Assembly: GCA_963665095.1 (NCBI GenBank)
Contig: OY762069.1
Coordinates: 2,144,001-2,208,000 of the forward strand
Direction: 5' to 3'
From: an uncultured Desulfobacter sp.
Lineage (GTDB): Bacteria; Desulfobacterota; Desulfobacteria; Desulfobacterales; Desulfobacteraceae
DNA length: 64,000 nucleotides
Under the pieces are notes generated by a model, which was not told the DNA's origin, made no database searches, and was given only the letters and a program-made list of their open reading frames with translations. A program made the position numbers and the translations under genes. Positions within the stretch are counted from its first letter, which is position 1, and the number at the start of each line of letters is the position of its first letter. Positions 14,346-37,282 of the stretch are shown in pieces.

Positions 14346-14371
14346 TGGTGGAGGCGGGGGGAGTTGAACCC
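14346..14371 (-). repeat. att core: duplicated tmRNA 3' end (distal island boundary)
   Basis: TGGTGGAGGCGGGGGGAGTTGAACCC is identical to 36931-36956. Confidence 0.95.
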
Positions 14372-14417
14372 GTATCCATACGTTGAAACCATTGTCACTA
14401 CTGGCTCTAAAAAGTGG

Positions 14418-14438
14418 CCGATAAACATCTGATAAATA
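14418..14438 (+). promoter_or_regulatory. Probable integrase arm-type sites (left arm)
   Basis: CCGATAAACATCTGATAAATA closely matches CTGATAAACATCTGATAAACA at 36861-36881; both are tandem 11-bp repeats about 50 bp inside an att core. Confidence 0.7.
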
Positions 14439-15268
14439 TTGGGTGCCACTTTGCCAGCTTTTTACACATTCATCATTGATAAAACCGGGCCCTCATTTTT
14501 AAGGACGGCCCTCCCCTTTCCATTCTTTATACAGGAAAACACGGGGAGCTTTTATCATTTCATGATCAGAACTGAACCACCCGTCTTTAAAGGGTTTTCA
14601 GCTTTTACGCGATCAAAAGTTTTAAAAAATCGTCTAAAAGTTTTAACCTTTGTTGGATCTCCTTTATTGACGGGTGGTTTCATTCTTTTTCTTAAGGACT
14701 TCACAAACTTATATATTATCCGAATACTGAGAATGCTATCATATCTCAAAAGCCTTGATAATAAAGGATTTCAAGCATTTTCACAGTTAAAACCAAACAT
14801 AATTTTTTATGTTTTTACTATACTGAATTTTGAACTTTATAGCGTCGGAAACCCTTTATTGACAAGCGTTTCCGAATCTTACCTCAATAAAAAATGGTTA
14901 AAACCTGTGAAAGTTTTTACATGCAATCTTCTTACATGTTTAATTTCTAGTGCAAAATTATTACGTGTGCCTATTTTTTCCCCTGAATATCCCAAATTCA
15001 AATTAGTTTGGGGAGGGGGGGGTAGTGTATTGGCAGAATGTGGTTAAGGGGAAAAAAATCAATTTTTATTCGGGATTGTTCGGAATTAAGGGGGATTAAC
15101 TGGGTATAATTACAATAAGATAGCAAATTTATGAAAATGGTTTATTTTTTATATTATTGCGTTTGTAAATGACGATATGCTCAAACAAACCTTTAACAAC
15201 CGGTTAACACTGACTGATACTTTATTGATACTTTATTGATACCTTTTAAGTGTTTTTAAGGGGGTAAC

Positions 15269-15556
15269 TTGCCCGGCCAAATCAACTTTGAACAGATTAA
15301 GGAGTATGGTTTGAAGATTGGCAACCTTTCACAAGACATGCAACTGGTTGCTACTGCAGTTGGAATTGATGGCGCCATCAAATTGATTTTAGCCTTTGGT
15401 GGGAGTTCCATTTATTTCCCTAAAAAAGAATCCTTATTGAAAAAAACAAGGAACAGGACAATCAAAAACGATTTTAATGGCACAAATTTAAAAGAGCTTT
15501 CTATGAAGTACCGTCTATCAACACCGTGCCTTAGAGCGATCATTAGGAGGAAATAA
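15269..15556 (+). CDS. Mor/C family transcription activator
   Basis: GIDGAIKLILAFGGSSIYFPK...RNRTIKNDFNGTNLKELSMKYRLST..LRAII, the typical Mor domain pattern. Confidence 0.88.
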   Translation: MPGQINFEQIKEYGLKIGNLSQDMQLVATAVGIDGAIKLILAFGGSSIYFPKKESLLKKTRNRTIKNDFNGTNLKELSMKYRLSTPCLRAIIRRK

Positions 15557-15560
15557 AATC

Positions 15561-16040
15561 ATGGCGAAAATATCCGGCTTAAAAAGGACACAGATCCAAG
15601 GCAAAAAATATGATTTACCAGCTGAAGAGGTAGAAATTCAGAAACTTGTAAAAAAAGGATTGGGCTTAGATGCGAAACTCAAAACAGTAAAAAATGAATT
15701 GGATGCGGTTAAGAATGAATTGATTTCCATTGCGGAAAGGCGGCGGGAAGGTACGACTACAGTAAAGTTACAGGCCGTCACCGGGGATTCTACCATTACT
15801 TTCAGGGAAACATATATTTGTGACGACCAAGTGGAAGAGATTTCCCAGGAGCTGGGTTCCTTATTTGACCGGTTCTTTACAAAAAAAATTGATTTCAAGA
15901 CCTCCACGGATCTGAAAAAATTTCTTGATGGTGAACATGCATATGGAATTGATGATCCTGAGCCGATGAAAAATTTAATTCTGGCTCATGTTATAAAGAA
16001 GACCACTAAACCCAATGTGAAACTGACACCAAATGAATAA
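15561..16040 (+). CDS. Hypothetical phage-type protein (coiled-coil N-terminus; weak resemblance to Mu Gam-like proteins)
   Basis: 159 aa with a strong RBS (AGGAGG); helical N-half and TVKL...TITF beta-region. Family assignment is tentative. Confidence 0.6.
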   Translation: MAKISGLKRTQIQGKKYDLPAEEVEIQKLVKKGLGLDAKLKTVKNELDAVKNELISIAERRREGTTTVKLQAVTGDSTITFRETYICDDQVEEISQELGSLFDRFFTKKIDFKTSTDLKKFLDGEHAYGIDDPEPMKNLILAHVIKKTTKPNVKLTPNE

Positions 16041-16232: not shown

Positions 16233-16814
16233 ATGACAGTTTTCACTTATGCCCGGGTAAGCACCCTGGACCAGAATACAGATCTTCAAGAAAAGGCTTT
16301 GAAAAAAGCCTATCCGGATTCAACGTTTCGGCAGGAAAAACAATCCGGCACATCTATGACTAAACGGGATGTGCTTAACCTGATCCTGGATATGATCGGG
16401 ACAGGTGACAAGCTGGTAGTTTGGAAATTAGACCGCCTGGCTCGAAACCTTCATGACCTGACAATGATTGTTGAATTACTTAGCGGTAAAGGTGCCGCTT
16501 TGGAAATATTGGATCAGAAGATAGACACCAGTACAGCTACCGGCCGGGCTTTTCTTCAAATGCTGGGGGTTTTCGCTGAATTCGAAACCAATCTCAGAAA
16601 AGAACGGCAACTGGCCGGTATTGCTGCGGCCAAGGCCAAAGGAAAGCACCTGGGCCGAAAACCATCCCTTACCGGCTGTCAGAAAAATGATATTCTGATA
16701 AAAAATGATAAAGGGATGAACCCTACTCAGCTTGCCAAAGAATTTGGCGTATCCAGGGCCACCATTTACAATGTCCTGAAGAATGATGAAGGTGCAGGTG
16801 AACATTCTTCCTAA
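16233..16814 (+). CDS. Serine recombinase (resolvase/invertase)
   Basis: YARVST.DQ, GDKLVVWKLDRLAR, AEFE and a C-terminal HTH (LAKEFGVSRATIY). Confidence 0.95.
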   Translation: MTVFTYARVSTLDQNTDLQEKALKKAYPDSTFRQEKQSGTSMTKRDVLNLILDMIGTGDKLVVWKLDRLARNLHDLTMIVELLSGKGAALEILDQKIDTSTATGRAFLQMLGVFAEFETNLRKERQLAGIAAAKAKGKHLGRKPSLTGCQKNDILIKNDKGMNPTQLAKEFGVSRATIYNVLKNDEGAGEHSS

Positions 16815-17046
16815 AAATGGTCCTGGGAAACGGGCTATGAAGTGTGACCAGTATGATAGGTGCCTAAACAAGGCTGCCTATGAAAACTGGGACCATTTCA
16901 ACTGTGAGGCCTGCAGTTATGAAAACAGGGGAAAGGTTGATTTCCTGCCTTCCTGTTTTATCTGCGCTGAACAGGATCTCAAAGAAACATTTGGCGCCTA
17001 TTGGGAGTTTATGGACATTGGCAATCCAAAATCTGAAACGGCATGA
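16783..17046 (+). CDS. Small Cys-rich hypothetical protein
   Basis: 87 aa, C-x5-C...W..F.C-x2-C pattern; overlaps the resolvase stop and lies in the same operon. Confidence 0.6.
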   Translation: MMKVQVNILPKNGPGKRAMKCDQYDRCLNKAAYENWDHFNCEACSYENRGKVDFLPSCFICAEQDLKETFGAYWEFMDIGNPKSETA

Positions 17047-17577
17047 ACATCTTTAACAGGAGCTTTCAGTGATCAATTCAGCATGTTTCAATCCTTCAGC
17101 AATGACCGTCAATCAGGTCCTGGATGCATTAACCCCTGAGATAAGGCAAGACCATAAAGTATGGCCAAAGCATTTGCGCGGCCTTACAGCTGTTTTGGCC
17201 ACAAATAAAATCAACCAGGGAATTGATCCCCAAACAGCGATTGAGAAAGCACAGAACATCATTATCACAATTGCTCACTATTTCGGGGGACGATCAATTT
17301 ATCTGCCGGCCAATGAAAAATTGAAAATGGTTTTACGGGATCTTGTTTCTTTATTGGGCAACAAGCATAAGACAAATTGGATTGAGACGTTCAAAGCCGA
17401 ATTCCCAAAAGACAAACAAACTTGGCCTGCTCTTCTGGCCGAATTATTTGATATTATTTTCCGGTTTTACGAATCAAGTGTCAGGCGGGGCGTGAACATG
17501 TCATAAATCTCCCGGTTTAAAAATGTAGGCGATTAAAGGGCCGGCCTCCAGATGCATGTAGACCGGCCTCGGCTTTG

Positions 17578-18312
17578 TTATTCTTCCGTCACATCTTTCA
17601 TTCTAAAACTCTTACCCTCAATGACCACAGGCTCGGTGTGGTGAAGAAGCCTGTCCAGCAAAGCTGATGTTAATGTCATGTCATTGTTGAAGATCTCCGG
17701 CCAATCTTTGAACACCCGGTTTGTGGTTATTATGATGGCTCCTTGCTCATAGCGCTGACTGATAATTTGGAACAACAGGTCTGCCCCAATCTTGTCAATG
17801 GGCAGGTAGCCCAGTTCATCCATGATCAACAAAGTTGGCTTGAGGTATTTTCTCAGTTCCTGCTTTAACTGACCCGCCTTCTGGGCTGCCACCAGATTGT
17901 TGACGATATCAATGGCAGAAGAGAACAGAACCGTATGGTTTTTCAGGCAGGCCTGGTAACCTAAAGCAGTCGCAATATGTGTTTTCCCAACACCGACCGG
18001 GCCGATCACGATAATGTTACCCTTTTCTTCAATGAACTTGAGTCTGAACAGATTCTGGATCTGAGCCTGATTGATTTTTCTGGGCCATGACCAGTTGAAC
18101 TGGTCCAGGGTTTTGATTACCGGGAACTTGGCCATACGGATACGGCGCTGGATGGTTTTATCATGGCGCAGTAGTGATTCATGCCTGGCAAGCTCTGATA
18201 GATATTGAACGTGGCTCCATTGCTTCTGGGCAGCCAGGGTAGCCACTGACTCATAGTTTTCCCTGATATAAGGTAGTTTTAAGTGGGACAGGCATTTCTC
18301 AAGATCAGGCAT
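17578..18312 (-). CDS. istB: IS21 helper AAA+ ATPase IstB
   Basis: Walker A GPVGVGKTH, LLIMDELGY, LFQIISQRYE and LLDRLLHH...GKSFR. Confidence 0.96.
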   Translation of the reverse strand: MPDLEKCLSHLKLPYIRENYESVATLAAQKQWSHVQYLSELARHESLLRHDKTIQRRIRMAKFPVIKTLDQFNWSWPRKINQAQIQNLFRLKFIEEKGNIIVIGPVGVGKTHIATALGYQACLKNHTVLFSSAIDIVNNLVAAQKAGQLKQELRKYLKPTLLIMDELGYLPIDKIGADLLFQIISQRYEQGAIIITTNRVFKDWPEIFNNDMTLTSALLDRLLHHTEPVVIEGKSFRMKDVTEE

Positions 18313-19780
18313 TTTTATCTCCTATGGCGGTATAAATATTAAGATCAGGCTCCTGGATTGTCAGGTTCAGTAAATCTGCTTTATGTGTAACATGCAGGGC
18401 TCCGGGCTCCTGGGGAGACCGAACCCGCTGCTCAAGGAGGTTGGCGATGTATTCACATGAGAATGCAGAGAACTTAAAGGCATCTTCAATGGCCATGGCA
18501 ACTTGTTCCCGGGAGTAGATTTCACTCAAGGCCACGATTTGCCGTACATGATGGGAGGCGTTAAGCCGCCTGTTCTGCAATTGCCTGTAATACTCCCGGG
18601 CCTTGTCAGAGAGGCTTAAAAAACGCATATAAATTGCCTGGTCTCTGGCCTTTTTGCGCTGGCTCAAAAGGATTTTAGAGTGATCAGGATCTTCAAGGTC
18701 GTTTTTGCGGCCATAGGATCTGACATGGCGGGCAACCAACTTGTCTTCATGGTAAAAGCAGATCCGATCAGGGTAAAGCTTGGCAGTCAAAGCCACCCCT
18801 GCCAGCTGGGCGGGTACTGTGTAAGCATTTGTATCGATGACTACCCTGTACTGTCTTGAAGCCCGTACCTGCTTTACCACACCGATATCATAGGGTTCTG
18901 ACGGCAGAGGGTATAGGTGGGGCAATTCCAGGGCATACATCTCTGCGGGCTTTTGACCGGTCTCTCCGTGGGTTCTGACATTGGCGACAGTATCAAGCCA
19001 GTGTTTGCAGGTGGGCTCCATGATCTTAAAATCAGGGATTTCAAGACCGTTGAGCAGATTCTTTTTGACATAGCCCACAGCATTTTCAACCCGGCCTTTT
19101 TCATTACCCTTGCGCACATTACAGGGAACAATTGTAAATCCGTAATAATCTGCAAAATCAAGGTATCTGGGGTTGAAGACCGGGGCTTTCCCCAGCAGTC
19201 TTTTTAGAACAGCGGATTTGAGATTGTCCACCATGACCTTTTCCGGCACCTTTCCAAAAAACTCAAATGCATTCTGGTGGCAGCCTAAAAAATGCTCCAT
19301 GGTCTGGGAGACCGTGAACTCAACGTACATCATGCGGCTGTGGCACATCACCATCACAAAAAAGCTCAACCGCCGGGTCGTGTTGCCCACCCTTACTGTA
19401 CTATAAGAACCCCAGTCCACCTGGGCAGCTTCACCCGGAGCAAAACTCAGTTTCAAATACGCCTTTGTTTTGGGCGGCCGCACCTTCCTGACATAATCCT
19501 CAACAATGGTGATGCCCCCGGCAAAACCATCCTGGGTGATTCGTTGAAATATCTGGCGGGAACTGTAGGGATGTTTTTCAAGCATATGCAGGATGGCGTT
19601 CTTATACGGATCAAGCTTGCTTTCTCTGGGGGCTGACTGTCTGGGCTGGTACCTTTTCAGGTTGGCCCACCTGGCAACTGTCCTGGGGTCCAGATCAAGG
19701 GCATTGGCAATCTGGCTGTATGTCAGGCCGTCTCGGGTAAAGTAATTTCTGATTTGAACATAGGTTTCGTAATCAATCAT
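18305..19780 (-). CDS. istA: IS21 transposase IstA
   Basis: N-terminal HTH, PGEAAQVDWG, DNLKSAV and KGRVENAVGYVK (DDE triad). Confidence 0.96.
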   Translation of the reverse strand: MIDYETYVQIRNYFTRDGLTYSQIANALDLDPRTVARWANLKRYQPRQSAPRESKLDPYKNAILHMLEKHPYSSRQIFQRITQDGFAGGITIVEDYVRKVRPPKTKAYLKLSFAPGEAAQVDWGSYSTVRVGNTTRRLSFFVMVMCHSRMMYVEFTVSQTMEHFLGCHQNAFEFFGKVPEKVMVDNLKSAVLKRLLGKAPVFNPRYLDFADYYGFTIVPCNVRKGNEKGRVENAVGYVKKNLLNGLEIPDFKIMEPTCKHWLDTVANVRTHGETGQKPAEMYALELPHLYPLPSEPYDIGVVKQVRASRQYRVVIDTNAYTVPAQLAGVALTAKLYPDRICFYHEDKLVARHVRSYGRKNDLEDPDHSKILLSQRKKARDQAIYMRFLSLSDKAREYYRQLQNRRLNASHHVRQIVALSEIYSREQVAMAIEDAFKFSAFSCEYIANLLEQRVRSPQEPGALHVTHKADLLNLTIQEPDLNIYTAIGDKNA

Positions 19781-20159
19781 GGTTGCCCTCCGCTGCTGCT
19801 TTTAGAATATCTGAAAGACGCAGCATGGAGCCGTGCCGTTTTGATTTACCAGGAGCAGGGTCAAGGGCAAGCACCTGGTAAATAGGTCTCTGCCAGGCAA
19901 TCAGCCCATTCTGTATTAACCCGGAACGTGCTGTCTTCAGGCCATCAGAATCCATGCACAGCCGATCCATGATCGCCTTATCTCCATAGTAGCTGATGCC
20001 TTGACTGTCGGCCACACACACCAGAAACAGATATAGGGCGGACTGGGAGTGTGTACACCTGTCAATGTGCCGTTCACGCACCAGGCGATGATCGATCCAA
20101 CTGAAGCTTTGGGGTGTTTTTCGAACCCTGGATGGTAAAATGGGGGCCTTTGCAATCAT
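19773..20159 (-). CDS. IS-borne accessory protein, probable winged-helix DNA-binding domain
   Basis: 128 aa (FSWIDHRLV...ALYLFLVCVADSQGISYYGD.AI...L...GLI); overlaps the istA start and lies inside the IRs. Confidence 0.75.
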   Translation of the reverse strand: MIAKAPILPSRVRKTPQSFSWIDHRLVRERHIDRCTHSQSALYLFLVCVADSQGISYYGDKAIMDRLCMDSDGLKTARSGLIQNGLIAWQRPIYQVLALDPAPGKSKRHGSMLRLSDILKAAAEGNHD

Positions 20160-20640
20160 TTTGCTCTCCTTCTTTTTGGGGTTGTGAACATAAAATGTCT
20201 TGCCCGTATTTTTTCATACGAAGGAGCGTGGAAGCGATGTCATCTTGTAACGCACTGCCTGTAAAGTTGGCGATTAACCCTATAATGACAGGAGGTTGCG
20301 CCCGTAAGAAATCTTGTAACGCATTGTCCATGAATTGCGTTGAATCCTGTTTATTTTCAGCCTGTTGGGGCAATATCGAGTCTTGTAACGTATCTGGGCT
20401 TTTGGTCTTCTTCCAATATCCGGGATTCTTCTTTCTCCATTCCTGAACACGTTCAACATGGGCAGGCCCACAAAAGTAGTTTCGATTTTCAGGCTTGTTC
20501 AGCCATTTTTTCTGGCTGCACCTTTTGCTGGCTTTTCTGCACTCAGATCTGGAACAGTATTTTTGAGAGTCTATATTTCTTGGATTAGGAGCGAATAATC
20601 TTCTACAATTTCGGCACCTTCTTTTCTTGAGTAGTCCCAT
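20074..20640 (-). CDS. IS-borne accessory protein with Cys4 zinc-finger-like N-terminus
   Basis: 188 aa; CRNC...QKYCSRSEC, RVQEWRKKNPGYW and three LQD repeats; RBS GGAGG; first gene inside the right IR. Confidence 0.75.
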   Translation of the reverse strand: MGLLKKRRCRNCRRLFAPNPRNIDSQKYCSRSECRKASKRCSQKKWLNKPENRNYFCGPAHVERVQEWRKKNPGYWKKTKSPDTLQDSILPQQAENKQDSTQFMDNALQDFLRAQPPVIIGLIANFTGSALQDDIASTLLRMKKYGQDILCSQPQKEGEQNDCKGPHFTIQGSKNTPKLQLDRSSPGA

Positions 20641-21076
20641 CTACATATTGCCTCCGATTCAAATCAGACATGAATAAGATCAGTATGTACGGAAAAAAGC
20701 AGAGGGCAAAGAAAGGAAAAAAATGAAGAAGACGAAATTTTTAAATTTGATTTTTAAGAGAAGAAAAACCAGCTAAGAACATACATTTTCAAACCGGGGA
20801 TTTGGCTGCATTTTCAAGACGGCCCTGACAATCAAGGGAGGGATTACAGCCAGGCGACGCCCTTGAAGAGACCCAAGGCGTAATTGGGTCCATTTCCAAG
20901 TACCATGGCGGGAGGGCATTGTACTTCCCACAAAATGACAAGCTAAAAATTGCCATTCGGGACCAGGCAGTTATCAAGGCTTTTAACGGACAAAATCATC
21001 TTGAACTATCATTGAAAACCAAGCTTACAACCGCGCAAATCTATAGCATCATTAAAAAGAAATCTCACACCGACTA

Positions 21077-21421
21077 TCACAAAAATACTTTGTAGTTAAC
21101 CTTCAGGGCCTTACCAAGGATCTGGGCGCGTTTCTTACCAATGGTACGCTTATGGTTTTCCATTTCGGAAATATGGGCCTGTGAAATGCCGGTTAATGCA
21201 GAAAGCTGCTTTTGGGTGACGCCCTCTTTGGTTCTGGCCCCCAGGAGCGCAACACCGGGCAAGTCGTACTCTTTAAATTCTTCAAACAATTCGTCTGCCG
21301 GGATTAATTCGGACACATCGGCAAAGCCAAGGGATTGAAGGGCATTAATTGCCTTTTCCCTGTTCTCCGGCGGCCCGATAAATCTTAATTCAATAGGGGG
21401 CTTTTTCGTGTGTTCCAACAT
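21077..21421 (-). CDS. XRE-family HTH antitoxin (HigA-like)
   Basis: ARTKEGVTQKQLSALTGISQAHISEMENHKRTIG; downstream of and overlapping a RelE-like gene. Confidence 0.85.
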   Translation of the reverse strand: MLEHTKKPPIELRFIGPPENREKAINALQSLGFADVSELIPADELFEEFKEYDLPGVALLGARTKEGVTQKQLSALTGISQAHISEMENHKRTIGKKRAQILGKALKVNYKVFL

Positions 21422-21668
21422 ATTTAATCTCCACAATTCGTATTTCTTTATCAATTACTTCCCATACTGCTACATAGGTGGGTTGTCCTTTTTTCAGGTG
21501 ACAGTGGTGCCGGTCCTTACCAAGGAGACTGTAGTTTGACCAGTTGCCACGGACAGGCCCGGTATCTTTGATTTCAGCAATCAAAACATACAAAGCAGCT
21601 TTAATCCTTTGCGGCAGTTTCATAGCCTGTTTTTTAACCTTTTTATTTGTAGTAACAACCCATGCCAT
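21390..21668 (-). CDS. RelE/HigB-like toxin
   Basis: 92 aa basic protein; HHCHLKKGQPTYVAVWEV...IKYVGTHEKAPY; toxin-before-antitoxin order. Confidence 0.82.
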   Translation of the reverse strand: MAWVVTTNKKVKKQAMKLPQRIKAALYVLIAEIKDTGPVRGNWSNYSLLGKDRHHCHLKKGQPTYVAVWEVIDKEIRIVEIKYVGTHEKAPY

Positions 21669-21677
21669 GTTTATAAA

Positions 21678-21704
21678 ATATACCCTTAAAAGGGATATTG
21701 TCAA
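21678..21704 (-). promoter_or_regulatory. TA operon promoter with palindromic operator
   Basis: Minus-strand TTGACA -35 (21699-21704) followed by the palindrome ATATCCCTT-TT-AAGGGTATAT in the spacer/-10 region. Confidence 0.7.
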
Positions 21705-21971: not shown

Positions 21972-22778
21972 TTATTGATGCGCCGCTAAATACTTTTCTA
22001 TTTCTTGGGCGGGATATGAAGGATAGCCCCGCTCTTGTCTTAATTCCAGGACGTAATCTTCAAACGTCTCCCCATCTTTCCCCTCATGCCAGTCTGCAGA
22101 CACTTGGAGCCATCCCCTTTCAAAAGTTTTACTGTCTCCAAAGAAATCCCGCATCTGTTCATACAGTCTTTGAACAAATTCAGCACCATTTATGAGGACG
22201 TCTACGTTCATCTGTTCATCCCCGCGGGAAAGTTCGAGAATAAGCCTGATATTGCCGTCTGTTTTACAGTAAATGGCAATATCAACATAAGATCGTTCTT
22301 CATCAACAGTGACTCGAATATCACGACCGTTCACCACTGCAAGCATGAGGTTATGATAATCACCAAGAGGGTCATATACATTGCTTGATGTTATCCAATA
22401 TTCCTTTCCACTAATAACGAATCCAATGTCCCACCAGCCGTGCTCCGGAGGATCTGAAATAATATCAAAACTATCCGCCACAGGCGGTTGTTTGTCCGGT
22501 TCTATATAGCTCTCTCCTGGAGCCCTCCAGCAATCACCCAAGGAATCGAACTGCCATCCGTGTCCCGTAATTATCGAATTTACGAAAGTGATACGCTCTA
22601 TTTCTGTGATTGTTTCCCGGTCATCCAAGATGGTAAGAAGTTCCGTGAATTCAATGCCCTTCAATCCCTGCTTTTCAAGATGGGCAATAATCTTGGCCTT
22701 TGTGACTGGAGGGTTATAGATTTGCCATCCATCTTTCCCGGTGATACGCACCGCATATATTGACTTTTCCTGTCCCAC
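21972..22778 (-). CDS. Hypothetical acidic cargo protein
   Basis: 268-aa ORF downstream of the repressor; no family recognised. Confidence 0.7.
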   Translation of the reverse strand: MGQEKSIYAVRITGKDGWQIYNPPVTKAKIIAHLEKQGLKGIEFTELLTILDDRETITEIERITFVNSIITGHGWQFDSLGDCWRAPGESYIEPDKQPPVADSFDIISDPPEHGWWDIGFVISGKEYWITSSNVYDPLGDYHNLMLAVVNGRDIRVTVDEERSYVDIAIYCKTDGNIRLILELSRGDEQMNVDVLINGAEFVQRLYEQMRDFFGDSKTFERGWLQVSADWHEGKDGETFEDYVLELRQERGYPSYPAQEIEKYLAAHQ

Positions 22779-22796
22779 TTAAGCCTTTCCTATTAT

Positions 22797-22979
22797 TTAC
22801 CCGCCACCACCAAACAACAGCAGGGCGATGAGCGCTATAAATATAGCCTTGAGCATTGGCTGTTCGTCTTGTGATATGGCCTTTATGGATTGATGGATGG
22901 AGCCCATCACAACAATCAGGGCGCCGATAAGAAAAAGGCATAAAAGGCATAGTGAAAAAATGATCAGAAATGTCTCCAT
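22797..22979 (-). CDS. Small membrane protein (two TM segments)
   Basis: 60 aa with two hydrophobic stretches; co-oriented with the repressor. Confidence 0.6.
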   Translation of the reverse strand: METFLIIFSLCLLCLFLIGALIVVMGSIHQSIKAISQDEQPMLKAIFIALIALLLFGGGG

Positions 22980-23618: not shown

Positions 23619-23651
23619 TTTATGATTTACCGCAAAACAAAGGAAATTGCA

Positions 23652-28028: not shown

Positions 28029-28852
28029 TGAACAGCAAACGATTATTGGCTTATTATGGATTGAAGTACAATCCTTTTTTACCAAATATTCCTGTGGACT
28101 CATTATGGCATCCACCCCGGATGGAGGCATTTATTACACGCCTTGAAAATATGACCATGAACGGTGGATTTGCATTAATCGCCGGTGAACCCGGTCTTGG
28201 CAAATCCAAGACACTACAGGCGATTGCCCATCAGCTTGGCAAGCTTGATGAAGTCGTTGTCGGCGTTATGGAGCGCCCCCAAAGCAGCGTGGCCGATTTC
28301 TATCGGGAAATGGGGACACTGTTTGGTGTCAATTTGAGTCCGGCCAACCGTTACGGAGGGTTCAAAGATCTGCGGCAACGATGGAAAAATCATATTAAAA
28401 CAACCCTGTTCAGACCCGTCCTGCTCATTGATGAGGCTCAGGAAATGCTTACCGGATGCCTGAATGAGCTTCGGTTGCTCAACAGTATGGATTTTGACTC
28501 CCAGAATTTATTGACCACCATTATCTGTGGTGATACCCGGCTGCCGGAACGGTTCAGAACCAGTGCATTGGTAGCCCTGGGGAGTCGACTCCGGTTCCGG
28601 TTAAAATTGGATCCTTATACCCGGGAAGAATTGTTGGATTATATAGCGCATTGCCTAAATCAGGCCGGAGCTCCTCAACTCATGACAAAACCTTTAATCA
28701 CCGCTTTGGTAGAGCACTGTACAGGAAACTTACGGGTCCTCAATAATATGTCGGCAGAACTGCTTGAAGTGGGCGTTCAAAGAGAGCTGCCGCAACTGGA
28801 TGAGAAACTTTTCATAGAGCTTTTTTCACTGAAACCGTCGCCAACCAGATAA
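28028..28852 (+). CDS. ExeA-like AAA+ ATPase (transposition helper)
   Basis: YGLKYNPF, GEPGLGKS, LLIDEAQEM and GNLRVLNNM. Confidence 0.9.
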   Translation: MNSKRLLAYYGLKYNPFLPNIPVDSLWHPPRMEAFITRLENMTMNGGFALIAGEPGLGKSKTLQAIAHQLGKLDEVVVGVMERPQSSVADFYREMGTLFGVNLSPANRYGGFKDLRQRWKNHIKTTLFRPVLLIDEAQEMLTGCLNELRLLNSMDFDSQNLLTTIICGDTRLPERFRTSALVALGSRLRFRLKLDPYTREELLDYIAHCLNQAGAPQLMTKPLITALVEHCTGNLRVLNNMSAELLEVGVQRELPQLDEKLFIELFSLKPSPTR

Positions 28853-28863
28853 GAGGTATAAAA

Positions 28864-29106
28864 ATGACAATCAATGAAACACAACTTGAAAAAACAATGG
28901 CTGAAATTGTCGACGAGCTGGGCAATCTGGTCATGGAGTTGATCCTTGTCAGTTTAAAAAAAATAAACTCGGAAAATCATCTTTTGACAGAATTGCTGGA
29001 GATCAAACAAGAGGAACAAAGAGAAAATGAATTTTATGGTTTTGGTGAAACGGAGCCGGGACATCCTGGGGAGGAAACCCGGCAAGGGATAGCCAAAAGC
29101 AGGTAG
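28864..29106 (+). CDS. Small acidic hypothetical protein within the transposon
   Basis: 80 aa with RBS GAGG; last gene before a terminator and the right end. Confidence 0.6.
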   Translation: MTINETQLEKTMAEIVDELGNLVMELILVSLKKINSENHLLTELLEIKQEEQRENEFYGFGETEPGHPGEETRQGIAKSR

Positions 29107-29123
29107 CATTGAATAATGCGCCG

Positions 29124-29155
29124 GGGGAAGCGGGGTTGACCTGCTTCCCCTTTCT
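29124..29155 (+). terminator. Intrinsic terminator of the transposon operon
   Basis: Hairpin GGGGAAGCGGG-GTTGA-CCTGCTTCCCC followed by TTTCT. Confidence 0.65.
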
Positions 29156-29526
29156 GTATTATTCAAGCTTTCCTGCTCATGCCTTAAAAAACCCAATAAA
29201 ATCAGTCGGAGCGCAGCGACATCTGCTAATCATTGAAAATACAGTTATGCCTTTCCCTGATTTATCCTGATTGTCGCTCCATTGATTATCGTGCTTCCTC
29301 TCACTCCAGGAACAACAGGACATTCACAATCCGTTCAACACGCCAGGGGCCATGGCAGCCAGCCTGATCAAGGTCTTTAAAAAATCCCATGTGCCGGTCC
29401 CGGGTTGGCTGTTCAAGTCCCGGGTCAAGTCCATTACCGGTCAGCATTACCATTGGTTTGAAAAAAGTGTTGATCCAAATTCAATCACCACCAAACAAAA
29501 CGTGAAAGCAGATTAGGAGAAAAACA

Positions 29527-30021
29527 TTGAATACAGAAACGTTGAAACCTGAGCCCTTCACACACCATCAAATCTCAAATTTTAAAGATGATATGCATTA
29601 CCACAACTGGACATTAAAAGCATTTGGCGCGCTCCTGGAATGTGCCAATCTTGAACGCTTCAGCGATGAATTTAAAGATGCCAGTGAATATAGAGGCGGA
29701 TTGAATGGAATTATTGAGATAATCACCGAACGCCAGGAAAAAATAGTGGATGACTTGATCAAAAAATATGACCAAAGCCCTGAATATATCATCCAGAAGG
29801 CAGACCAAATCAGTTACCTGCTTGAGCACGGAGGATATAGAACCCATGAAGACGCCTTGAAGGATATAAACGAGGCCATTGGAAAGCTTGACACCGTTAT
29901 TGAAAATTTTGACGATGAATACCCCAGGGCAATGGAGTTGAAAATTGAACTTACACTCAAACGCAATGTCCTTTGCCAAAACATGAAGCCCCAGGAAATG
30001 ACGATCAAGGAAGCCGGATAA
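29527..30021 (+). CDS. Hypothetical helical protein
   Basis: 164 aa with RBS AGGAG; in the early operon. Confidence 0.7.
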   Translation: MNTETLKPEPFTHHQISNFKDDMHYHNWTLKAFGALLECANLERFSDEFKDASEYRGGLNGIIEIITERQEKIVDDLIKKYDQSPEYIIQKADQISYLLEHGGYRTHEDALKDINEAIGKLDTVIENFDDEYPRAMELKIELTLKRNVLCQNMKPQEMTIKEAG

Positions 30022-30672: not shown

Positions 30673-33531
30673 ATGCAAAACGATTTTCAAGCGATTAAGG
30701 ACCTGATTGATATTGTTGATGAAATAACAGGGCGAACCGGGGGAACGCTCAAAAAGACAGGGAAAACCCTAAGCCTGTCACAATGCCCTTTTTGCGGGGG
30801 CCATGACTGTTTCAGAATCTACCCTGATACCCGGTCCTGGAGCTGCTTTCAATGCGGGGACAACACCGGCGGAAGCATCATTGATTTTGTAGTCAGGGAA
30901 AAGAACTGCACCGAACATGAAGCTTTAAAAGAACTGGCCCAGGCCCACAACTATGAACTTCATGAAGCAGCTCCGGAACATGATTCTTCACGGGAGGCCA
31001 CCTCCCCAGGCCGGCTGATATTTGAAGCGGCCGCAAATTATTATTCCAGAGTTTTGTACAGGACGGGTCAGGCTATTGCTTATCAACGAGAGACTAGGGC
31101 CCACAGCGACCAGATATTGAAAAAATTCCGGATAGGCGCCACGGACGGGGGCCTGCAAACTGAACTGAAGAAACAGAATTTTGGTATGGACGATATTCTT
31201 GGTTCTGGTTTGGTGATACCGGATAAAAAAGAAGGATACCGGGATTACTTTCTGCCCGGGCTTTTCATTTATCCCCATCCTGATAAGACCGGCCAGGTCT
31301 GTCATTTTTCAATTAAAGATCCCCGGAAAAAGTTTGCCTATCAGCTTCCCAATGAAAAGCGGCTTCCTGGAGTGCCTTTCTTTAATATGAAAGCGTTTAA
31401 AGGGAACCGGGTGATCCTGGTGGAAGGGGAAAATGATCTGCTATCGGTTTTCGGCAAAGGGCAATGTCCCTATGTTACGGCTATCATAGGGCAAATTTCA
31501 GGGGATCAGCTTAAATACCTGGTGGAATGGGTAATTACAGGACCACCTAAAGAGGTGTTCCTTTGCTTTGACAATGATCCTGCTGGGAATAAATACCGGG
31601 ACCGGATTACAGAAACGTTAAAGCGGTATTGCTACCCGGAAAAGGTTTATCAGATCAATGAACGGCTCCGGGAACGCCAGGTCAGGAAAGCAAAGGGGGA
31701 TGATTCCGGCGCAATACCGGAAGAACTCCCAAAGCTGATCCGCCTGACCTTAAAAATCTTATCATTTGACCAACGGTTCAATGATATTGACGATTTCCTG
31801 AAAGCGGCTGAGAACCCGAAAAAAGAATTTCAGTCACTGCTTGACCAGGCCCGGCCTTACCTGAAGCCTTTGACAGAAGTTCTCCCCATGGTCAGGGCCA
31901 TGTTCCAGGAAGCAAAAATTAACAACTGCAGCAATGAAATAGGAGAGGTGGTCTTTGATTATTTCAACACCCTGGGTGGCTTTTTCGTCAATGGTGAAGA
32001 GTGCCGGCTGTTTTATGAGGGCAAAATCTACGAAATTGGAAACAACATTGCCTTCAAGTCCCTGATCTACCAGGCCGCGGGGCTCAATTATGCAGACAAC
32101 GGCACCAAAAGCATTTTGGAGGTGATCCGGGCAGAGGCCTATATAAAAGGAAAGCACACATCCACCATGGGATGGATCCACACAGATGCAGTAAAAGAAA
32201 TTATTTATTATGACCTGAGAAACGAGATGAACACCATTGCCAGGATCCGGGCCGGCAAAGTGGACCTGATCCAAAACGGCGCCAATGAAGATAATGTTCT
32301 CCTGGAGAGCACGCCGAGAATGGAACCGGTTCATTATCTGCCTGAAGCCAATATCCAAGAGGCCATGGACCGGTTCAAATCAATCCTTCTGGACAACCTG
32401 GCCTGCAGCGAATCAAACAAGTACTTCATTGCGGCCAGGATCTTGAACACCATTCTTCTGGAGTTCGTTACCACGGCCAGGGGTATTACCAAATTTTCAG
32501 GAGACCAGGGCGCGGCCAAATCCTTTGCGGCCCGGCTTATTTCCTATTTGATTATGGGTGCGGACTGCGTGTCTCAAGGTTCTGTAGCTTCTTACAGGTC
32601 CGAGGCCACCAAGAGCCCGGTTATTATCCCGGACAACCTTGAGAAAGCAGACCGGACAAAAGAGGTGTTGAACTTCCTTCTCCTGGGGGCCACGGGTGCC
32701 ATTAACCAGAAACGGGATAGCAACACCAGTTCTGGAAATATTTATGAAGAGAACAAAGCACAAATCATTACCACATCCATTGAGCCTTTCACTGAATCTG
32801 AGCTGATTTCCAGGACCATTGATATTCATTTTGAAAAAGAGTTCCGGAACAAGGACTTTCCGGGGGAAACTCTGTTGAAAACAGAGATAGAAAGGAACCG
32901 GGACGTAATCCTGAGTTCTTTTTTCAAAATTGTGGCCTTTGATATTCTTCCCACCTTCAGCCAGGACCGGGCCAAAATCAATAAATTTTTAAACACTGAG
33001 CGCCAGGGGCACGCAAAGGAACGGCTGAATGAACTTTTCGCCTGTTTATATCTGCTTTGCCGGCAGGTTGTCAGATACATTCCACACTCAGAACACGCCG
33101 GGTCTGATCCGGCCATGGGTATTCTGGATGACTGGCTGAATGAACAACATGATTTGGCCGCTGCCACCCAGCAGGACACAGACCCCATTCTTTACAGGCT
33201 GGAAATCCTGTTGGATGAATGCTGCCAGTTAAAAGATAATTTTTCAGAAGCTTATGGAATCCAGGCCGTAACCCTGACCAGAACGATTCAGGACAAGGTG
33301 TCAAAGGTCAGTATCCTTGCTTCAGCAAAGGAACTTTGCACGGCATTCAGCATCATATCCAAACAAAAAAATATTCCAAATCCGTTTCAGGCTCCCGGTG
33401 TTCTGGGCTCAAGGTTATCTAATTCACAACAGGTTCTGGAGGGTGCCGGCTGGCAAGTGGGAATCCGGCACGCCAAATGTGCCGGACAGCATAAGCATTT
33501 GTTGGTTAAAAATGTGGGGTGGTCTGAATGA
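30673..33531 (+). CDS. DnaG-type primase fused to a helicase-like and a C-terminal domain (replication initiator)
   Basis: Zinc-binding CPFCGGHD...WSCFQCG, Toprim ILVEGEND...LCFDND and Walker-A-like GDQGAAKS; 952 aa. Confidence 0.9.
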   Translation: MQNDFQAIKDLIDIVDEITGRTGGTLKKTGKTLSLSQCPFCGGHDCFRIYPDTRSWSCFQCGDNTGGSIIDFVVREKNCTEHEALKELAQAHNYELHEAAPEHDSSREATSPGRLIFEAAANYYSRVLYRTGQAIAYQRETRAHSDQILKKFRIGATDGGLQTELKKQNFGMDDILGSGLVIPDKKEGYRDYFLPGLFIYPHPDKTGQVCHFSIKDPRKKFAYQLPNEKRLPGVPFFNMKAFKGNRVILVEGENDLLSVFGKGQCPYVTAIIGQISGDQLKYLVEWVITGPPKEVFLCFDNDPAGNKYRDRITETLKRYCYPEKVYQINERLRERQVRKAKGDDSGAIPEELPKLIRLTLKILSFDQRFNDIDDFLKAAENPKKEFQSLLDQARPYLKPLTEVLPMVRAMFQEAKINNCSNEIGEVVFDYFNTLGGFFVNGEECRLFYEGKIYEIGNNIAFKSLIYQAAGLNYADNGTKSILEVIRAEAYIKGKHTSTMGWIHTDAVKEIIYYDLRNEMNTIARIRAGKVDLIQNGANEDNVLLESTPRMEPVHYLPEANIQEAMDRFKSILLDNLACSESNKYFIAARILNTILLEFVTTARGITKFSGDQGAAKSFAARLISYLIMGADCVSQGSVASYRSEATKSPVIIPDNLEKADRTKEVLNFLLLGATGAINQKRDSNTSSGNIYEENKAQIITTSIEPFTESELISRTIDIHFEKEFRNKDFPGETLLKTEIERNRDVILSSFFKIVAFDILPTFSQDRAKINKFLNTERQGHAKERLNELFACLYLLCRQVVRYIPHSEHAGSDPAMGILDDWLNEQHDLAAATQQDTDPILYRLEILLDECCQLKDNFSEAYGIQAVTLTRTIQDKVSKVSILASAKELCTAFSIISKQKNIPNPFQAPGVLGSRLSNSQQVLEGAGWQVGIRHAKCAGQHKHLLVKNVGWSE

Positions 33532-33582
33532 TTTTTCACCAAATAAAAGATCAAATATTTTGGGGGGGCATTTTTTGGAAAT

Positions 33583-33790
33583 GGGTCCCAAAGTCCCCAA
33601 TCTTATATTTTTAATTTTTAACATATTGTTTTTATTATCCATCAAAGTGCAACAGTACGGGGACCCAAAGAGGGGACCGAACTCCAAAGGAGTCCCCAAA
33701 CTTTGTATAAGTCCCCAAACTCGGGACCCGAAATTTGACATAACTAATTGTTATTAATAAGCATAATATCAATTGGGGACTTGGGGACCC
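33583..33790. repeat. Iteron cluster, probable replication origin
   Basis: About nine GGGGAC/GTCCCC motifs in both orientations (33583, 33593, 33659, 33672, 33692, 33711, 33723, 33775, 33783) separated by AT-rich tracts, immediately after the primase stop. Confidence 0.8.
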
Positions 33791-33845
33791 TTAAAAGAAG
33801 CCCCCCCTCCCCTTGGGGAAGATGGATAGAAATAAGGCGGGAATC

Positions 33846-34298
33846 ATGAACACGGAGAACAAAAAATTTGTTTTTGAAAGCATCACTGAAAAACAGGCAT
33901 GGAAAATCATGGCAATTTGCAATCAATCTCAGGAATTTGACACCGCGAAGCTCTATTCCATGATTCATGATTTAACTGGGATTCCTTCAGTTAACTCCCT
34001 GTCAAAACAGGAAGCGTCTTTTATCATTGACCGGCTCCAAGGGTGCACGAAATGGCGCCGGCCAAAGAGATCGCGAACAGTGGATAGAATCAAGGGAAAT
34101 GCCCGGAACCTGCCGGCCCTTGGCCATATCCTTTTTATCCGGGAATCGGTAAGGGCCTTGGGCTGGGATAAGGCTCATTTTAAAGCCTGGCTGGAGAAAT
34201 ACATTAAAGCCCGCAACCTCAACGAACTGACCCGGGAGACTGCCCGGAAGGCATACATCGGATTAATGAAAATTCGAATCAACACCATGGAATCATGA
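33846..34298 (+). CDS. Mu GemA/gp16-like protein
   Basis: Two-repeat pattern LTGIPSVNSLSKQEASFIIDRL and ALGWDKAHFKAWLEKY...LNELTRETARKAYIGL, as in GemA/DUF1018; recognised by pattern only. Confidence 0.7.
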   Translation: MNTENKKFVFESITEKQAWKIMAICNQSQEFDTAKLYSMIHDLTGIPSVNSLSKQEASFIIDRLQGCTKWRRPKRSRTVDRIKGNARNLPALGHILFIRESVRALGWDKAHFKAWLEKYIKARNLNELTRETARKAYIGLMKIRINTMES

Positions 34299-34305
34299 AA
34301 GGGAA

Positions 34306-35601
34306 ATGACTGTGTCATATATTGAAACCACCCAGGGGGAAAAGCTATTCAAACAATACCTGGACAAATTCAAGGGCAAAACCAGCCAGAAGGTTTACCG
34401 GTCTGAGATCCGACAGTTTTTTAATTTCTACAGCGGGGCCATTGAATTCCTGAAGAAAAAAGATTTCATCCGGTACCGGGACCACCTGGGCAAAACGTCC
34501 AAGGCCAAAACCGTTAAACGTAAATTTTCCATCCTTAACCAGTTTTTCAAATTCCTGGAGTCCAAGGTCAAAGAATTTCGTTCCCCCATTGGAAAAAATT
34601 ACGGTGACATGCAGGATTTCAGGGGCGGCACTTATGTGGAATCTGAATCCTTTGCCAACCAGGTGGGCTATTGGACAGAAAGCCTTATCTGTGATTCCAC
34701 CAAACGGACTTATGCAGGGGCTGTGAAGCTGTTCTTTGGTTATACGGCCAAGGATCCCAAGGACCTTGTTCAGGATGACTTCCTTAAATACCGGGACCAC
34801 CTGTTGCTCGAAAAGAAACAGAAAACCTCAACGGTCTGGAACAAATTCATTGCCATCAACAGCTTTTTAAAATTCATGGATACCGGAAATCGAAAGTTCA
34901 AAAATCCACTGGACTTTAAGCGCCTGGCCCTGGTCCCGCCTAAAAAAGATAAGGGATATTATACGGTGTTAAGCAGCAAAGAGGCAAAGAAGCTTTTGAG
35001 GCAGCCAGACAGGCGAACCCTGATAGGCAAACGGGACTATGCCATCTTACGGCTCATGCTGACCTATGGTCTCAGAGTGAATGAAGTCTGCAAACTGGAA
35101 TATCAGGACCTTGAAACAGAAAGGGTAAAAGGCCAGCAAAAGCTTTGGATCCGGGACCGAAAAGGAAGGATAGGCAGACGGGCTGATACAGATATTATTT
35201 TAAACGGGAAAGCCCTGGAAGCATTTGATGACTGGATGACCCACTGTCAAATCAAGTTTGAAACAGACACACCTATCTTTATAGGATTTCGCTTTGATCT
35301 TGCACATGGCCTGGCCATTCGTTGGGACCAGGTCCGCAACAAAAAGCATCTGACGACCAGAGCCGTGGAATACATGATTGAAAAATATGTGGTCCAAGCC
35401 GGCATTGATCATGGTGATAAAGTCATCAGTGCCCATGCTTTGAGACATACGGCAATAACCATGCTGGCCCATGCCGGTGTTAAGCTGGTGGATCTTAAAT
35501 TTCTGGCCGGCCATCAGGATGTCAGTACCACACTGATTTATCTTCACAGTGTTCAATCTTATGAAGACCATGCAGGAATGCACAATCCCTTGAACAGATA
35601 A
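34306..35601 (+). CDS. XerC/D-like tyrosine recombinase with duplicated core-binding domain
   Basis: Intact catalytic residues GLRVNE, K, HALRH, AGHQD and TTLIY; two similar N-terminal SAM-like repeats. Confidence 0.92.
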   Translation: MTVSYIETTQGEKLFKQYLDKFKGKTSQKVYRSEIRQFFNFYSGAIEFLKKKDFIRYRDHLGKTSKAKTVKRKFSILNQFFKFLESKVKEFRSPIGKNYGDMQDFRGGTYVESESFANQVGYWTESLICDSTKRTYAGAVKLFFGYTAKDPKDLVQDDFLKYRDHLLLEKKQKTSTVWNKFIAINSFLKFMDTGNRKFKNPLDFKRLALVPPKKDKGYYTVLSSKEAKKLLRQPDRRTLIGKRDYAILRLMLTYGLRVNEVCKLEYQDLETERVKGQQKLWIRDRKGRIGRRADTDIILNGKALEAFDDWMTHCQIKFETDTPIFIGFRFDLAHGLAIRWDQVRNKKHLTTRAVEYMIEKYVVQAGIDHGDKVISAHALRHTAITMLAHAGVKLVDLKFLAGHQDVSTTLIYLHSVQSYEDHAGMHNPLNR

Positions 35602-35713
35602 CCATTTTTGTCACCGATATTTGTAAAAGAGATATAAATTGACTCAACTGCAGCCCAGAACATACAATCAACCATCAAATTCCAGCTTTCAAAGGAAAGG
35701 AGGTGGTTTATGT

Positions 35714-36910
35714 ATGAAAGGTTCAATCTACACAGCACAAAGGTGTTTCCAGTGTGGGGGGAATCTGAAGTATGCCGAGGGCCGCGGTTTTCTGTATTGT
35801 CCAAATCATTCAGAAAGTAATTGGGTTGGTCCATGCATGGTCCGTTTCGGCAGGGAGCATACAAAACGGTTTCAAACTGTTGGTGAAGCTGAAAGGCATT
35901 TGACGTTTCTCCGGGTCCAGACCGACAGAAACGAATTTGACCAAAGAGAATGGGCCAAGGATCAACCCTTATCCTTTTTCTCCCTGAGAACCAAATTCCT
36001 TGAGATGAAAAAAAGGCAGGCCATCACTAAGCATCATATTCGCCATATTGAAAGGGTGTTAGAACTTGCCGGCAAATCATGGGACTGTATGCAGATAAAA
36101 GAGATTGCTGAAGGAGAAATTGATGATTTTTTTTCAATGGATCACGGCGTAGGGAATAAAACCTTATCTAACTGGAAAGCGGTTCTTCATGATTTCTGGG
36201 TCTGGGTAGTAAGAAGGGAAAAGCGCCGGTCAAAACTTGAAATGCCCGAGTTCCCGGACATTCAGTTTAAAATGAAAATGAAAACAGTTGTTTCAGTATC
36301 AGACCAGCAGGATATTATTCAAGAGCTTCGCCGGATTACCTGGGATATCAACCCAAGGATTTGGCTTGGGGTGAAGCTTTTATCCATTTATCCACGGATC
36401 CGCCCCGGAGAAATGTTAAATGTCAAAGAAGGGCATATGAATCTTAAAGATGGATGGATTGTTTTCCCCCAACCAAAGGAAAGGGATCCTAAGTTCGTTC
36501 ATTTGCTGCCTGAAATTTCAGAAATGATAGAGGAAATCAGAAGAATGGTCCCCCCTGCCCTCCCGGATATTTATTTTTTCCGACATTTAAAGACCAGGTC
36601 AGGTGTTCAGGCGGGTATAAAGTTCGGTCCTAAATATTTTAACAACTGGTGGAATACTGCAGCCAACAATTTGGGGATTTCTGGGGTATCTCTTTATCCG
36701 GGAACAAAGCACTCAACTGTTACGGCCTTAGGAAAACTAATGACACCGGAACAGATAAAGCACAATGTTACCGGTCATACCTCAAACGCATTTGAAAGGT
36801 ATTTCCTGCCGAATCATCAGGAGGCAATCATGGCTACCCGCCAAGTTACCCAAATGCAGGCTGATAAACATCTGATAAACATTTTGGAGGTTAAAAAAGA
36901 AGTTAAATGA
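35714..36910 (+). CDS. Island integrase (tyrosine recombinase)
   Basis: RIRPGE, LYPGTKHS (variant of HxxR), TGHTS and FERY; N-terminal CxxC...C domain; ends next to the att core. Confidence 0.85.
   Translation: MKGSIYTAQRCFQCGGNLKYAEGRGFLYCPNHSESNWVGPCMVRFGREHTKRFQTVGEAERHLTFLRVQTDRNEFDQREWAKDQPLSFFSLRTKFLEMKKRQAITKHHIRHIERVLELAGKSWDCMQIKEIAEGEIDDFFSMDHGVGNKTLSNWKAVLHDFWVWVVRREKRRSKLEMPEFPDIQFKMKMKTVVSVSDQQDIIQELRRITWDINPRIWLGVKLLSIYPRIRPGEMLNVKEGHMNLKDGWIVFPQPKERDPKFVHLLPEISEMIEEIRRMVPPALPDIYFFRHLKTRSGVQAGIKFGPKYFNNWWNTAANNLGISGVSLYPGTKHSTVTALGKLMTPEQIKHNVTGHTSNAFERYFLPNHQEAIMATRQVTQMQADKHLINILEVKKEVK
36861..36881 (+). promoter_or_regulatory. Probable integrase arm-type sites (right arm, within the integrase 3' end)
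   Basis: CTGATAAACATCTGATAAACA, matching 14418-14438. Confidence 0.7.
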
Positions 36911-36930
36911 CTGATTTTATAGGTATTTTA

Positions 36931-37282
36931 TGGTGGAGGCGGGGGGAGTTGAACCCCCGTCCGAAAACAATCAACCCAGGCTTCTACATACTTATCCTGA
37001 ACTTTATAATTGGCCGGGAAGGCTCCTCCAGAATGGATACGACCCGGTATATCCTGAAAAATTCAACTTTTGAAATCCAGGAAGTTTCAAAAGCGGTCTT
37101 GCTGAGTCGACGCCCGGTCCTGAATCTGCAAGAAGGATGTCAGGCGGACGGTAGCTTATGCTGCTACAGCGTAGTTATAATCGTCTGCGATTATGTTTAA
37201 ATATTGCCAAGTTTACGAGTTGACAAAACACTCGGTATGCTACCATGGGCGTCAAAATCTCCGTCGAAACCATTACGCCCCC
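36931..37282 (-). ncRNA. ssrA: tmRNA
   Basis: 5' GGGGGCGTAATGGTTTCGACGG and 3' GGTTCAACTCCCCCCGCCTCCACCA; tag ORF ADDYNYAVAA* at 37188-37156; next to smpB. Confidence 0.97.

Follow-up and report, generated by a model that had tools for sequence, protein, structure and literature searches.

A tmRNA-integrated, capsid-less island of Desulfobacter belongs to a new family of PICI-like elements, some carrying Mor- and GemA-type phage genes

P4-like satellites act on their helper phage through the late-activator logic of delta and Ogr, and to our knowledge there is little on phage satellites from hosts other than Proteobacteria, Firmicutes, and marine groups. For phage-inducible chromosomal islands (PICIs), SatelliteFinder, in its published description, uses a definition by five core components, and Type C is treated there as uncertain (10.1101/2022.09.14.508007). 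PmCI172, a PICI of Pasteurella multocida, is described with a Mu-like myovirus as its helper (PMC6092414). GemA and Mor/C are used as markers of transposable (Mu-like) phages in an account that gives the function of GemA as unknown (PMC8705779), and activation by Mor and MuC in E. coli is reported to need a clamp-binding motif (PMC12867686). Here, we analyze a stretch of 64,000 nucleotides from an uncultured Desulfobacter sp. (contig OY762069.1, positions 2,144,001 to 2,208,000), referred to below as the window. It contains an island, integrated at positions 14346–36956 in the gene for transfer-messenger RNA (tmRNA), that had been predicted from its sequence to be a capsid-less satellite of Mu-like phages. 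The island represents a new PICI-like family whose helper is unproven, and the finding is real and wider than a single island.

The island is flanked by 26-bp direct repeats (Table 1). The repeat corresponds to the 3′ end of the tmRNA, and the 6.9 Mb genome contains no copy besides these two. A second, 17-bp repeat lies 45–50 bp from the att core on either side. With up to two mismatches it has seven matches in the genome, two of which are both ends of a resident prophage. It is read as the arm-type site of the integrase because it also stands at the ends of this prophage, the integrase of which is 60% identical to that of the island. After subtraction of two transposons, both multicopy and flanked by 6-bp duplications, the island measures 15,718 bp, in agreement with the ~15.7 kb originally estimated. 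Its open reading frames (ORFs) were scanned against Pfam (42 ORFs), PHROGs (29), and NCBIfam (26), and no capsid, terminase, tail, or relaxase family was found among them; the sole exception is a weak match to a small-terminase (terS) helix-turn-helix (HTH) within the HTH of the resolvase. Tail and holin genes were found neither in the island (Pfam, PHROGs) nor in the relatives scanned. Relaxase, coupling protein, and type IV secretion system families, the markers of integrative mobilizable or conjugative elements, were likewise absent from Pfam scans of the window and relatives. The predicted lack of recognizable virion and conjugation genes thus agrees with the family scans, and it is conserved in the relatives. 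No contig with an excision or circle junction was seen among the contigs of seven runs, a result of no evidential weight since contigs drop rare forms. Loose contig ends at 36883, 14416, and 14371 were considered as circle or empty-site junctions and rejected: they are accounted for by the core and the short arm repeat, and the attL and attR contigs listed continue unbroken through these positions.

The island belongs to a conserved family of 14–16 kb capsid-less islands in Desulfobacterales, the members of which were reached through the primase, Xer, and 15561. The gene at 15561 is present in 7 of 401 genomes of the order, that of the window included, and in none of 400 other genomes across the phylum. 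Relatives of the Xer-like recombinase are found at 3 genome loci and 15 metagenome loci; a search of 24 further genomes from the genus, at E 1e-40, gave none. Family members come from Desulfobacterales and related deltaproteobacteria. Besides the window, 13 distinct loci carry the 15561 gene, most of them together with xer and the cis site (L049 was dropped from this count as a near-copy of L046). Their genes usually follow one order: switch/antirepressor, the helical 29527 protein, an excisionase-like HTH protein, primase, then gemA and xer, the cis site, 15561, mor (optional), resolvase, and integrase. GemA is present in seven of the nine relatives that run from primase through integrase. 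In the window, unlike in the relatives, a different integrase and its attP sit between xer and the cis site. As a result, the order gemA-xer-int-attP-mor that had been read from the window is correct for this copy, whereas the relatives read gemA-xer-site-15561-(mor)-resolvase-int.

Two relatives are att-bounded, at 13.9 kb (L046) and 15.1 kb (L172), and both are integrated in the mpl gene; others lie at tRNA-Glu and tRNA-Thr. Proteins picked from att-bounded and other loci were scanned against Pfam (53 proteins) and PHROGs (56), and nothing convincing was found for head, tail, lysis, or relaxase genes. The weak exceptions are HTH-type terS matches and, in L173, a cargo ORF with one match of 126 aa to a large-terminase PHROG (E 2.5e-6). 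Neither a full virion module nor a relaxase or type IV secretion system, either of which would have spoken against the original prediction, was seen in the relatives. Two further observations concern individual relatives: the island of genome G050 contains two arrays of 58-bp tandem repeats (L046:2869-3550 and 12187-12694), and in another relative, xer and the cis site are separated by a gene for a sigma-70-family factor (L057:4980-5687).

The two Mor-family proteins proposed for the island are well supported, as all three ORF pieces score above the profile cut-off of 24.9 bits (15269, 57.6; 17069, 37.5; 20919, 44.4). Free of its insertion, mor2 encodes 222 aa, comprising one HTH and a pair of N-terminal domains that are 33% alike. 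The GemA assignment is closer to the limit: the window protein falls just under the cut-off (26.9 bits against 27) and was missed in the genome-wide family search, whereas relatives in L054, L057, and L064 pass. In a tree of 27 Mor rows, from which L169 (a near-copy of L106) and fragments were left out, the island Mors do not form one clade (monophyly rejected, p-AU 1e-58) and are interleaved with Mors of Mu-like prophages. Both halves of mor2 fall in a clade of long-type Mors (support 96/94) that consists mostly of Mu-like prophage Mors, to which they are 40–51% identical. Of the Mors compared, those closest to the island's belong to Mu-like prophages from its own order, where Mor stands immediately 5′ of lysis and head genes (L107/L108). 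From these sequences it appears that mor was captured several times, likely from Mu-like phages. The GemA tree has a different shape. Seven of eight island-type sequences group with two GemAs of distant IMG/VR transposable phages (88/94), apart from the Mu-like GemAs of the order itself, which points to one old gain. Island-type gemA also occurs alone among chromosomal genes, with neither xer nor 15561, at L114:3869-4324 and L115:8575-9093.

The original prediction left it open whether the island transactivates or interferes with its helper. A strict pattern for the clamp-binding motif is matched by 6 of 14 Mu-like Mors and by none of seven island Mors (p 0.06); a loose pattern, written after the sequences had been inspected, is matched by 10 of 14 and again by none of seven (p 0.004). 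Since the island Mors lack the motif that Mu Mor/C need in order to activate, interference seems more likely than transactivation, and our reading leans towards it.

The explanation that we favor, and to which we would give a little under an even chance, is that the island is a tmRNA-integrated, capsid-less, PICI-like satellite packaged by a temperate tailed helper phage, and that its Mors, captured from Mu-like phages, damp the late genes of this helper. The island would lie repressed in the tmRNA gene, its CI/Cro switch and antirepressors making induction respond to a helper or to SOS signals. A circle would be excised from the tmRNA site by the integrase, replication would proceed from the island's own primase and predicted origin, and the Xer-like enzyme would resolve multimers to monomers at the conserved cis site. 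The Mor variants may sit on helper late promoters or trap helper Mor/C in inactive heterodimers, mor2 having two N-terminal domains and one HTH. Packaging may be redirected by 15561, 29527, or GemA, and the circle would leave in particles of the temperate tailed helper.

Several points weigh against this explanation. No terS or capsid-size gene was identified; parasitism on phages would be evident from these two PICI components. Among the nine relatives that extend from primase to integrase, only three have Mor, and both att-bounded relatives lack it. IMG/VR contigs, searched with exact short patterns of low sensitivity, yielded no primase, Xer, 15561, or 29527 of the family; INPHARED phage records held no family gene either, and a GemA scan of IMG/VR gave the two distant transposable phages only. 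When the islands were compared with 42 prophage-related loci, the lambdoid integrase was the only DNA in common. The motif is also lacking in 4 of 14 Mu-like Mors and in all five Mors that are neither island nor Mu-like; moreover, the strict contrast stays at p = 0.06, the loose pattern is post hoc, and related sequences are not independent. Many branches of the Mor tree are long, which limits its detail.

A more specific version, in our judgement rather unlikely, holds that the family parasitizes incoming Mu-like phages of sulfate reducers. Repeatedly stolen, clamp-less Mor decoys would shut down helper late transcription, and GemA together with 15561/29527 would redirect packaging. Here, mor2 would be a single-chain, double-dimerization form, GemA an old component, and the packaged unit the self-resolved island circle. 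Also unlikely is a P4-style transactivator, in which the island Mor would act as P4 delta does, switching on late genes of a resident Mu-like prophage, with packaging in the absence of helper replication. The best matches of mor1 and mor2 are indeed in Mu-like prophages; GemA, the Cys-rich gene at 16783, and the weakly Ner-like cro are Mu-associated as well. Mu-like prophages are also common in the order: GemA is found in 42 of 401 genomes, MuA in 13 of 20 regions examined around GemA matches, and a full late region in one genome (G313). This scheme needs a co-resident prophage, however, and none was found in the genome of the window (97% complete, one contig), where Portal_Mu, Mu gpF, Terminase_6N, and gpT were not found and all four Mor matches fall within the island locus. 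Canonical GemA is present in 0 of 7 carriers against 39 of 394 other genomes, with a chance of zero of 0.48, so that this speaks only for no enrichment. Portal_Mu was detected in none of six carriers, its positive control going likewise undetected, and Mu gpT in none of four, its control being detected; GpA-type terminase, in two of five carriers, is uninformative. Further points against transactivation are the missing clamp motif and the lack of a Sid, Psu, or delta match. A helper specifically of Mu type, as first proposed, is thus not borne out: a survey recovered the same gene set in relatives, but, judged by GemA, co-occurring Mu-like prophages in none of the seven carriers. The match of the integrase to a resident lambdoid prophage also speaks against a Mu-specific pairing. 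Mor itself, found in 24 of 401 genomes, is mostly but not only a Mu marker here, because non-transposable prophages also carry it. The Mor loci examined comprise 15 Mu-like prophages (10 with MuA and MuB in the stretch, five assigned from Gam, DUF3164, or MuB), three non-transposable prophages (L034, L156, L162), two tail-only clusters, and five fragments or unclear cases. Candidate helpers are Mu-like phages and non-transposable Mor-bearing phages alike.

Two other explanations do without a helper of this kind. The island might be a self-replicating integrative element that moves without phage, carried in vesicles, taken up as DNA, or mobilized in trans by conjugation, with Mor, GemA, and Xer regulating or maintaining the element itself. 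We consider this rather unlikely: no relaxase or coupling protein family was found, Xer is not found in PLSDB plasmids at E 1e-30, cargo is scarce, and the accessory genes are phage regulators, not genes of benefit to the host. On the other hand, the resolvase and the element's resolution-type system hint at a stage outside the chromosome, the combination of integrase, primase, and small serine recombinase recalls cargo elements of the tycheposon type as these are described (10.1101/2020.12.28.424599), and the viral contigs scanned gave no match to primase, Xer, 15561, or 29527. It is unlikely, too, that the islands lack a transfer route of their own and are decayed early regions of prophages of the L034/L162 type, which are non-transposable and Mor-bearing. 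L034, which has a terminase and a Mu-type portal, shares with the island the primase (33% identity), the ORF6N antirepressor (40%), and an Xer placed beside Mor; this layout recurs in L162, and the window copy is itself broken by insertion sequences (IS) and flanked by a remnant. Against decay, the compact layout recurs at five different sites (tmRNA, mpl, tRNA-Glu, tRNA-Thr, and others) in several families, att-bounded and free of late genes. In addition, none of the prophages examined was found to carry 15561, 29527, the 431-aa Xer, or the cis site, and the L034/L162 Mors form a clade of their own apart from the island Mors.

Some of the phage loci deserve description in their own right. A 37 kb lambdoid prophage in the genome of the window (C1:1281293-1318983; L002, L070) has an integrase of the island's family and the same arm motif; it encodes Nu1/GpA terminase, a lambda-type portal, a protease-capsid fusion, and contractile-tail genes. 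In L034 (G055:C90) and L162 (G229:C660), Xer adjoins Mor, a terminase is present, and the Mu-type portal is fused to a gpF-like region; no transposase was found in the stretches examined. Clusters at L154:11443-19160 and L157:11316-19099 consist of a repressor, a long-type Mor, and baseplate/tail genes with no head genes, at a conserved chromosomal site in two genomes. They are possibly tailocin-like or a domesticated Mu remnant.

The protein at 15561, which has 125 homologues, had been taken as possibly Gam-like, and direct comparisons with Gam were weak. PF07352 is not among the top families of 109 members, the comparison with the Gam structure 2p2u is weak (Z 4.1 across 67 residues, level with coiled coils), and hhalign gives a probability of 1%, although one Atlas cluster at 0.94 contains 12% Gam members. 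The protein resembles uncharacterized phage proteins and DUF7173 clusters (Atlas 0.94–0.96 to viral clusters). Its predicted model has a pLDDT of 90; BFVD matches are uncharacterized Caudovirales proteins, and Foldseek gave no match in the PDB at E 0.001. The non-coding cis site, ~360 bp long and placed 3′ of xer in relatives, has a central imperfect palindrome near 14698–14727 between inverted pairs of AAGTTTTAAC-type boxes. A profile built from 12 relatives, the window excluded, matches it at E 5e-32 and nothing else in the genome. We take the palindrome to resemble dif/lox sites, and the whole would be a multimer-resolution site used by the Xer-like enzyme. A further region, 3′ of the primase, contains GGGACCC/GTCCCCAA repeats and a 19-bp inverted pair; repeats also lie 3′ of the primase in L057 and L173, and the region is predicted to work as a replication origin.

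Both transposons are multicopy: the IS21-type element has nine other full-length copies in the genome, and the second element 12 others (13 in all), each with a 6-bp target duplication. The second element scores below every NCBIfam IS cut-off. Its rve transposase and AAA ATPase genes (26583–28852) match the Mu-type PHROGs 310 and 296 and lie where MuA/MuB would be. They were considered as MuA/MuB of the island and rejected, as they belong to a multicopy IS that is missing in run X5 and in the relatives. Contigs of sample S3 join across the IS21 element (runs X5, X6, X8; three of four runs), and a contig of run X5 (one of four) joins across the second. Because these contigs span both sites, a sister strain is read as having the 222-aa mor2 and the 333-aa ORF6N antirepressor intact. 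The copy in the window may be impaired, as mor2 and one antirepressor are both IS-broken.

The resolvase, the HTH/toxin-like pair, the cis site, and a sister-island remnant are features beyond the original prediction. The remnant is 90–96% identical to 20873–21858 and 82% to 36897–36956, and sample S3 differs here; it appears as a deleted sister island adjoining att. Remnants likewise occur at the tmRNA site of G002 (primase and toxin-antitoxin fragments, L175) and G289 (broken mor, L161). With remnants in three genomes, the site has been visited repeatedly. Genes for an OmpA-domain protein and a CHASE2-HD protein lie immediately to the left of the remnant (10870–13573), outside the island. 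A second toxin-antitoxin pair lies at C1:1139001-1139613. PADLOC gave generic HTH matches only for the island. For the 29527 protein, a lead to Derepression (PF25738; Atlas, 0.80) was rejected with a score at chance level, and a resemblance of ORF 24516 to P4 Ash found no support in profile searches.

Table 1. Features of the island and its borders, in window coordinates.
Feature	Position	Strand	Remarks
Sister-island remnant outside att	13563..14345	none	mor2 C-half, int-side flank of att, pieces of toxin-antitoxin genes
att core (displaced tmRNA 3′ end)	14346..14371	none	26-bp direct repeat
Predicted integrase arm-type site	14420..14436	+	17-bp repeat of 36863-36879
Conserved non-coding cis site	14612..14969	none	predicted resolution site of Xer-like recombinase
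mor1, short Mor/C-family regulator	15269..15556	+	PF08765 57.6 bits, phrog_532; no clamp-binding motif
Family-core coiled-coil phage-type protein	15561..16040	+	DUF7173-like; 125 homologues
Small serine resolvase/invertase	16233..16814	+	PF00239 129 bits, phrog_125
Small Cys-rich protein	16783..17046	+	homologues in island relatives and beside mor in Mu-like prophage L123
mor2 N-part	17069..17478	+	IS-broken in window, intact in S3; two tandem Mor N-terminal domains
IS21-family insertion, recent	17479..20830	-	istA, istB, two accessory ORFs
mor2 C-part	20837..21095	+	bears HTH
Probable type II toxin-antitoxin pair	21077..21704	-	HTH_3 antitoxin; 104-aa upstream ORF without profile match
Two cargo ORFs	21972..22979	-	268 aa; 60 aa hydrophobic; no Pfam, PHROG, NCBIfam, PADLOC match
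CI-like repressor	23007..23507	-	HTH_3, phrog_8/4
Cro/Ner-like regulator	23601..23873	+	HTH_3; weak TIGR04111 BcepMu gp16, 23 bits vs cut-off 34
Antirepressor (P22_AR_N)	23749..24498	+	113.6 bits
ORF6N antirepressor N-part	24968..25762	+	C-part 29310-29516; 333 aa when IS-free
IS-like transposon, 3.5 kb	25763..29303	+	four ORFs; HTH, rve transposase, AAA/ExeA-like ATPase
Family-core protein	29527..30021	+	28-36% identical homologues in 6 relatives; no family match
Zn-finger/Toprim primase	30673..33531	+	large C-terminal region; phrog_47
Predicted replication origin	33562..33835	none	iteron-like repeats, AT-rich center
GemA-like protein	33846..34298	+	island-specific clade
Xer-like tyrosine recombinase	34306..35601	+	431 aa; two SAM-like domains; best-conserved gene of island family
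Integrase	35639..36910	+	phrog_1 weak; 60% identical to resident lambdoid prophage integrase (C1:1281293-1282636)
Predicted integrase arm-type site	36863..36879	+	17-bp repeat, pair of 14420-14436
att core inside intact tmRNA	36931..36956	none	26-bp direct repeat; tmRNA 36931-37282, minus strand

A literature search that covered few subscription journals and no supplements showed, among the papers listed, no satellite carrying Mor or GemA, and found no paper on phage satellites in Desulfobacterota. The pairing of a satellite with a Mu-like helper, which the original prediction did not know to be described, is already published for PmCI172. Current satellite models would miss the island family or rank it as Type C. 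Should a helper prove to be the target of the Mor genes, they offer a simple test of satellite control over a transposable phage, and as natural clamp-less variants they test the finding that activation by Mor/C requires the sliding clamp. GemA, kept here without transposition genes, provides a handle on its function.

In comparison with known systems, the island is like the early region of transposable phages in having GemA, Mor/C, a c/ner-like switch, and a Cys-rich gene beside mor. Both transposable-phage markers are present, Mor above its cut-off and GemA just under it, with three relatives above. The island differs in having no MuA/MuB or late genes of its own, in site-specific integration, and in replication by a primase. 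With tycheposons, compared by their description only (10.1101/2020.12.28.424599), it shares a tyrosine integrase targeted to tRNA/tmRNA, an excisionase, a primase, and a small serine recombinase; it has no nutrient cargo, major capsid protein, or terS, and belongs to another host group. Like P4-like satellites, it carries an integrase, a primase, and a homologue of a helper late-gene activator, but this homologue is Mor/C, and no Psu, Sid, delta, or epsilon match was found in Pfam, PHROGs, or NCBIfam. Capsid, portal, and large terminase, the markers of cf-PICIs (capsid-forming PICIs) and prophages, were not found in the window or in the att-bounded L046 and L172. Among the PICI components, integrase and primase-replicase are present, and tail or holin genes are lacking. 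For the regulator (AlpA, MerR, Stl), the window has a CI-like HTH_3 repressor, and typical forms occur in relatives (AlpA in L054; MerR-type in L046, L047, and L050). Capsid morphogenesis genes have no match in Pfam, PHROGs, or NCBIfam, and terS is represented only by weak HTH-type PHROG matches inside other proteins. Because no terS or capsid gene was found and the regulator match is uncertain, the island is not filed as a PICI and would be Type C at best. It also differs from PICIs in the divergent CI/Cro switch and antirepressors of this copy, and adds an Xer-like recombinase with its conserved site, a resolvase, GemA, and Mor. With the PICIs of Gram-negative bacteria it nevertheless shares a size of 12–16 kb, an integrase at a fixed att, a regulator module, a primase, and the lack of tail and lysis genes, and the island likely works like a PICI.

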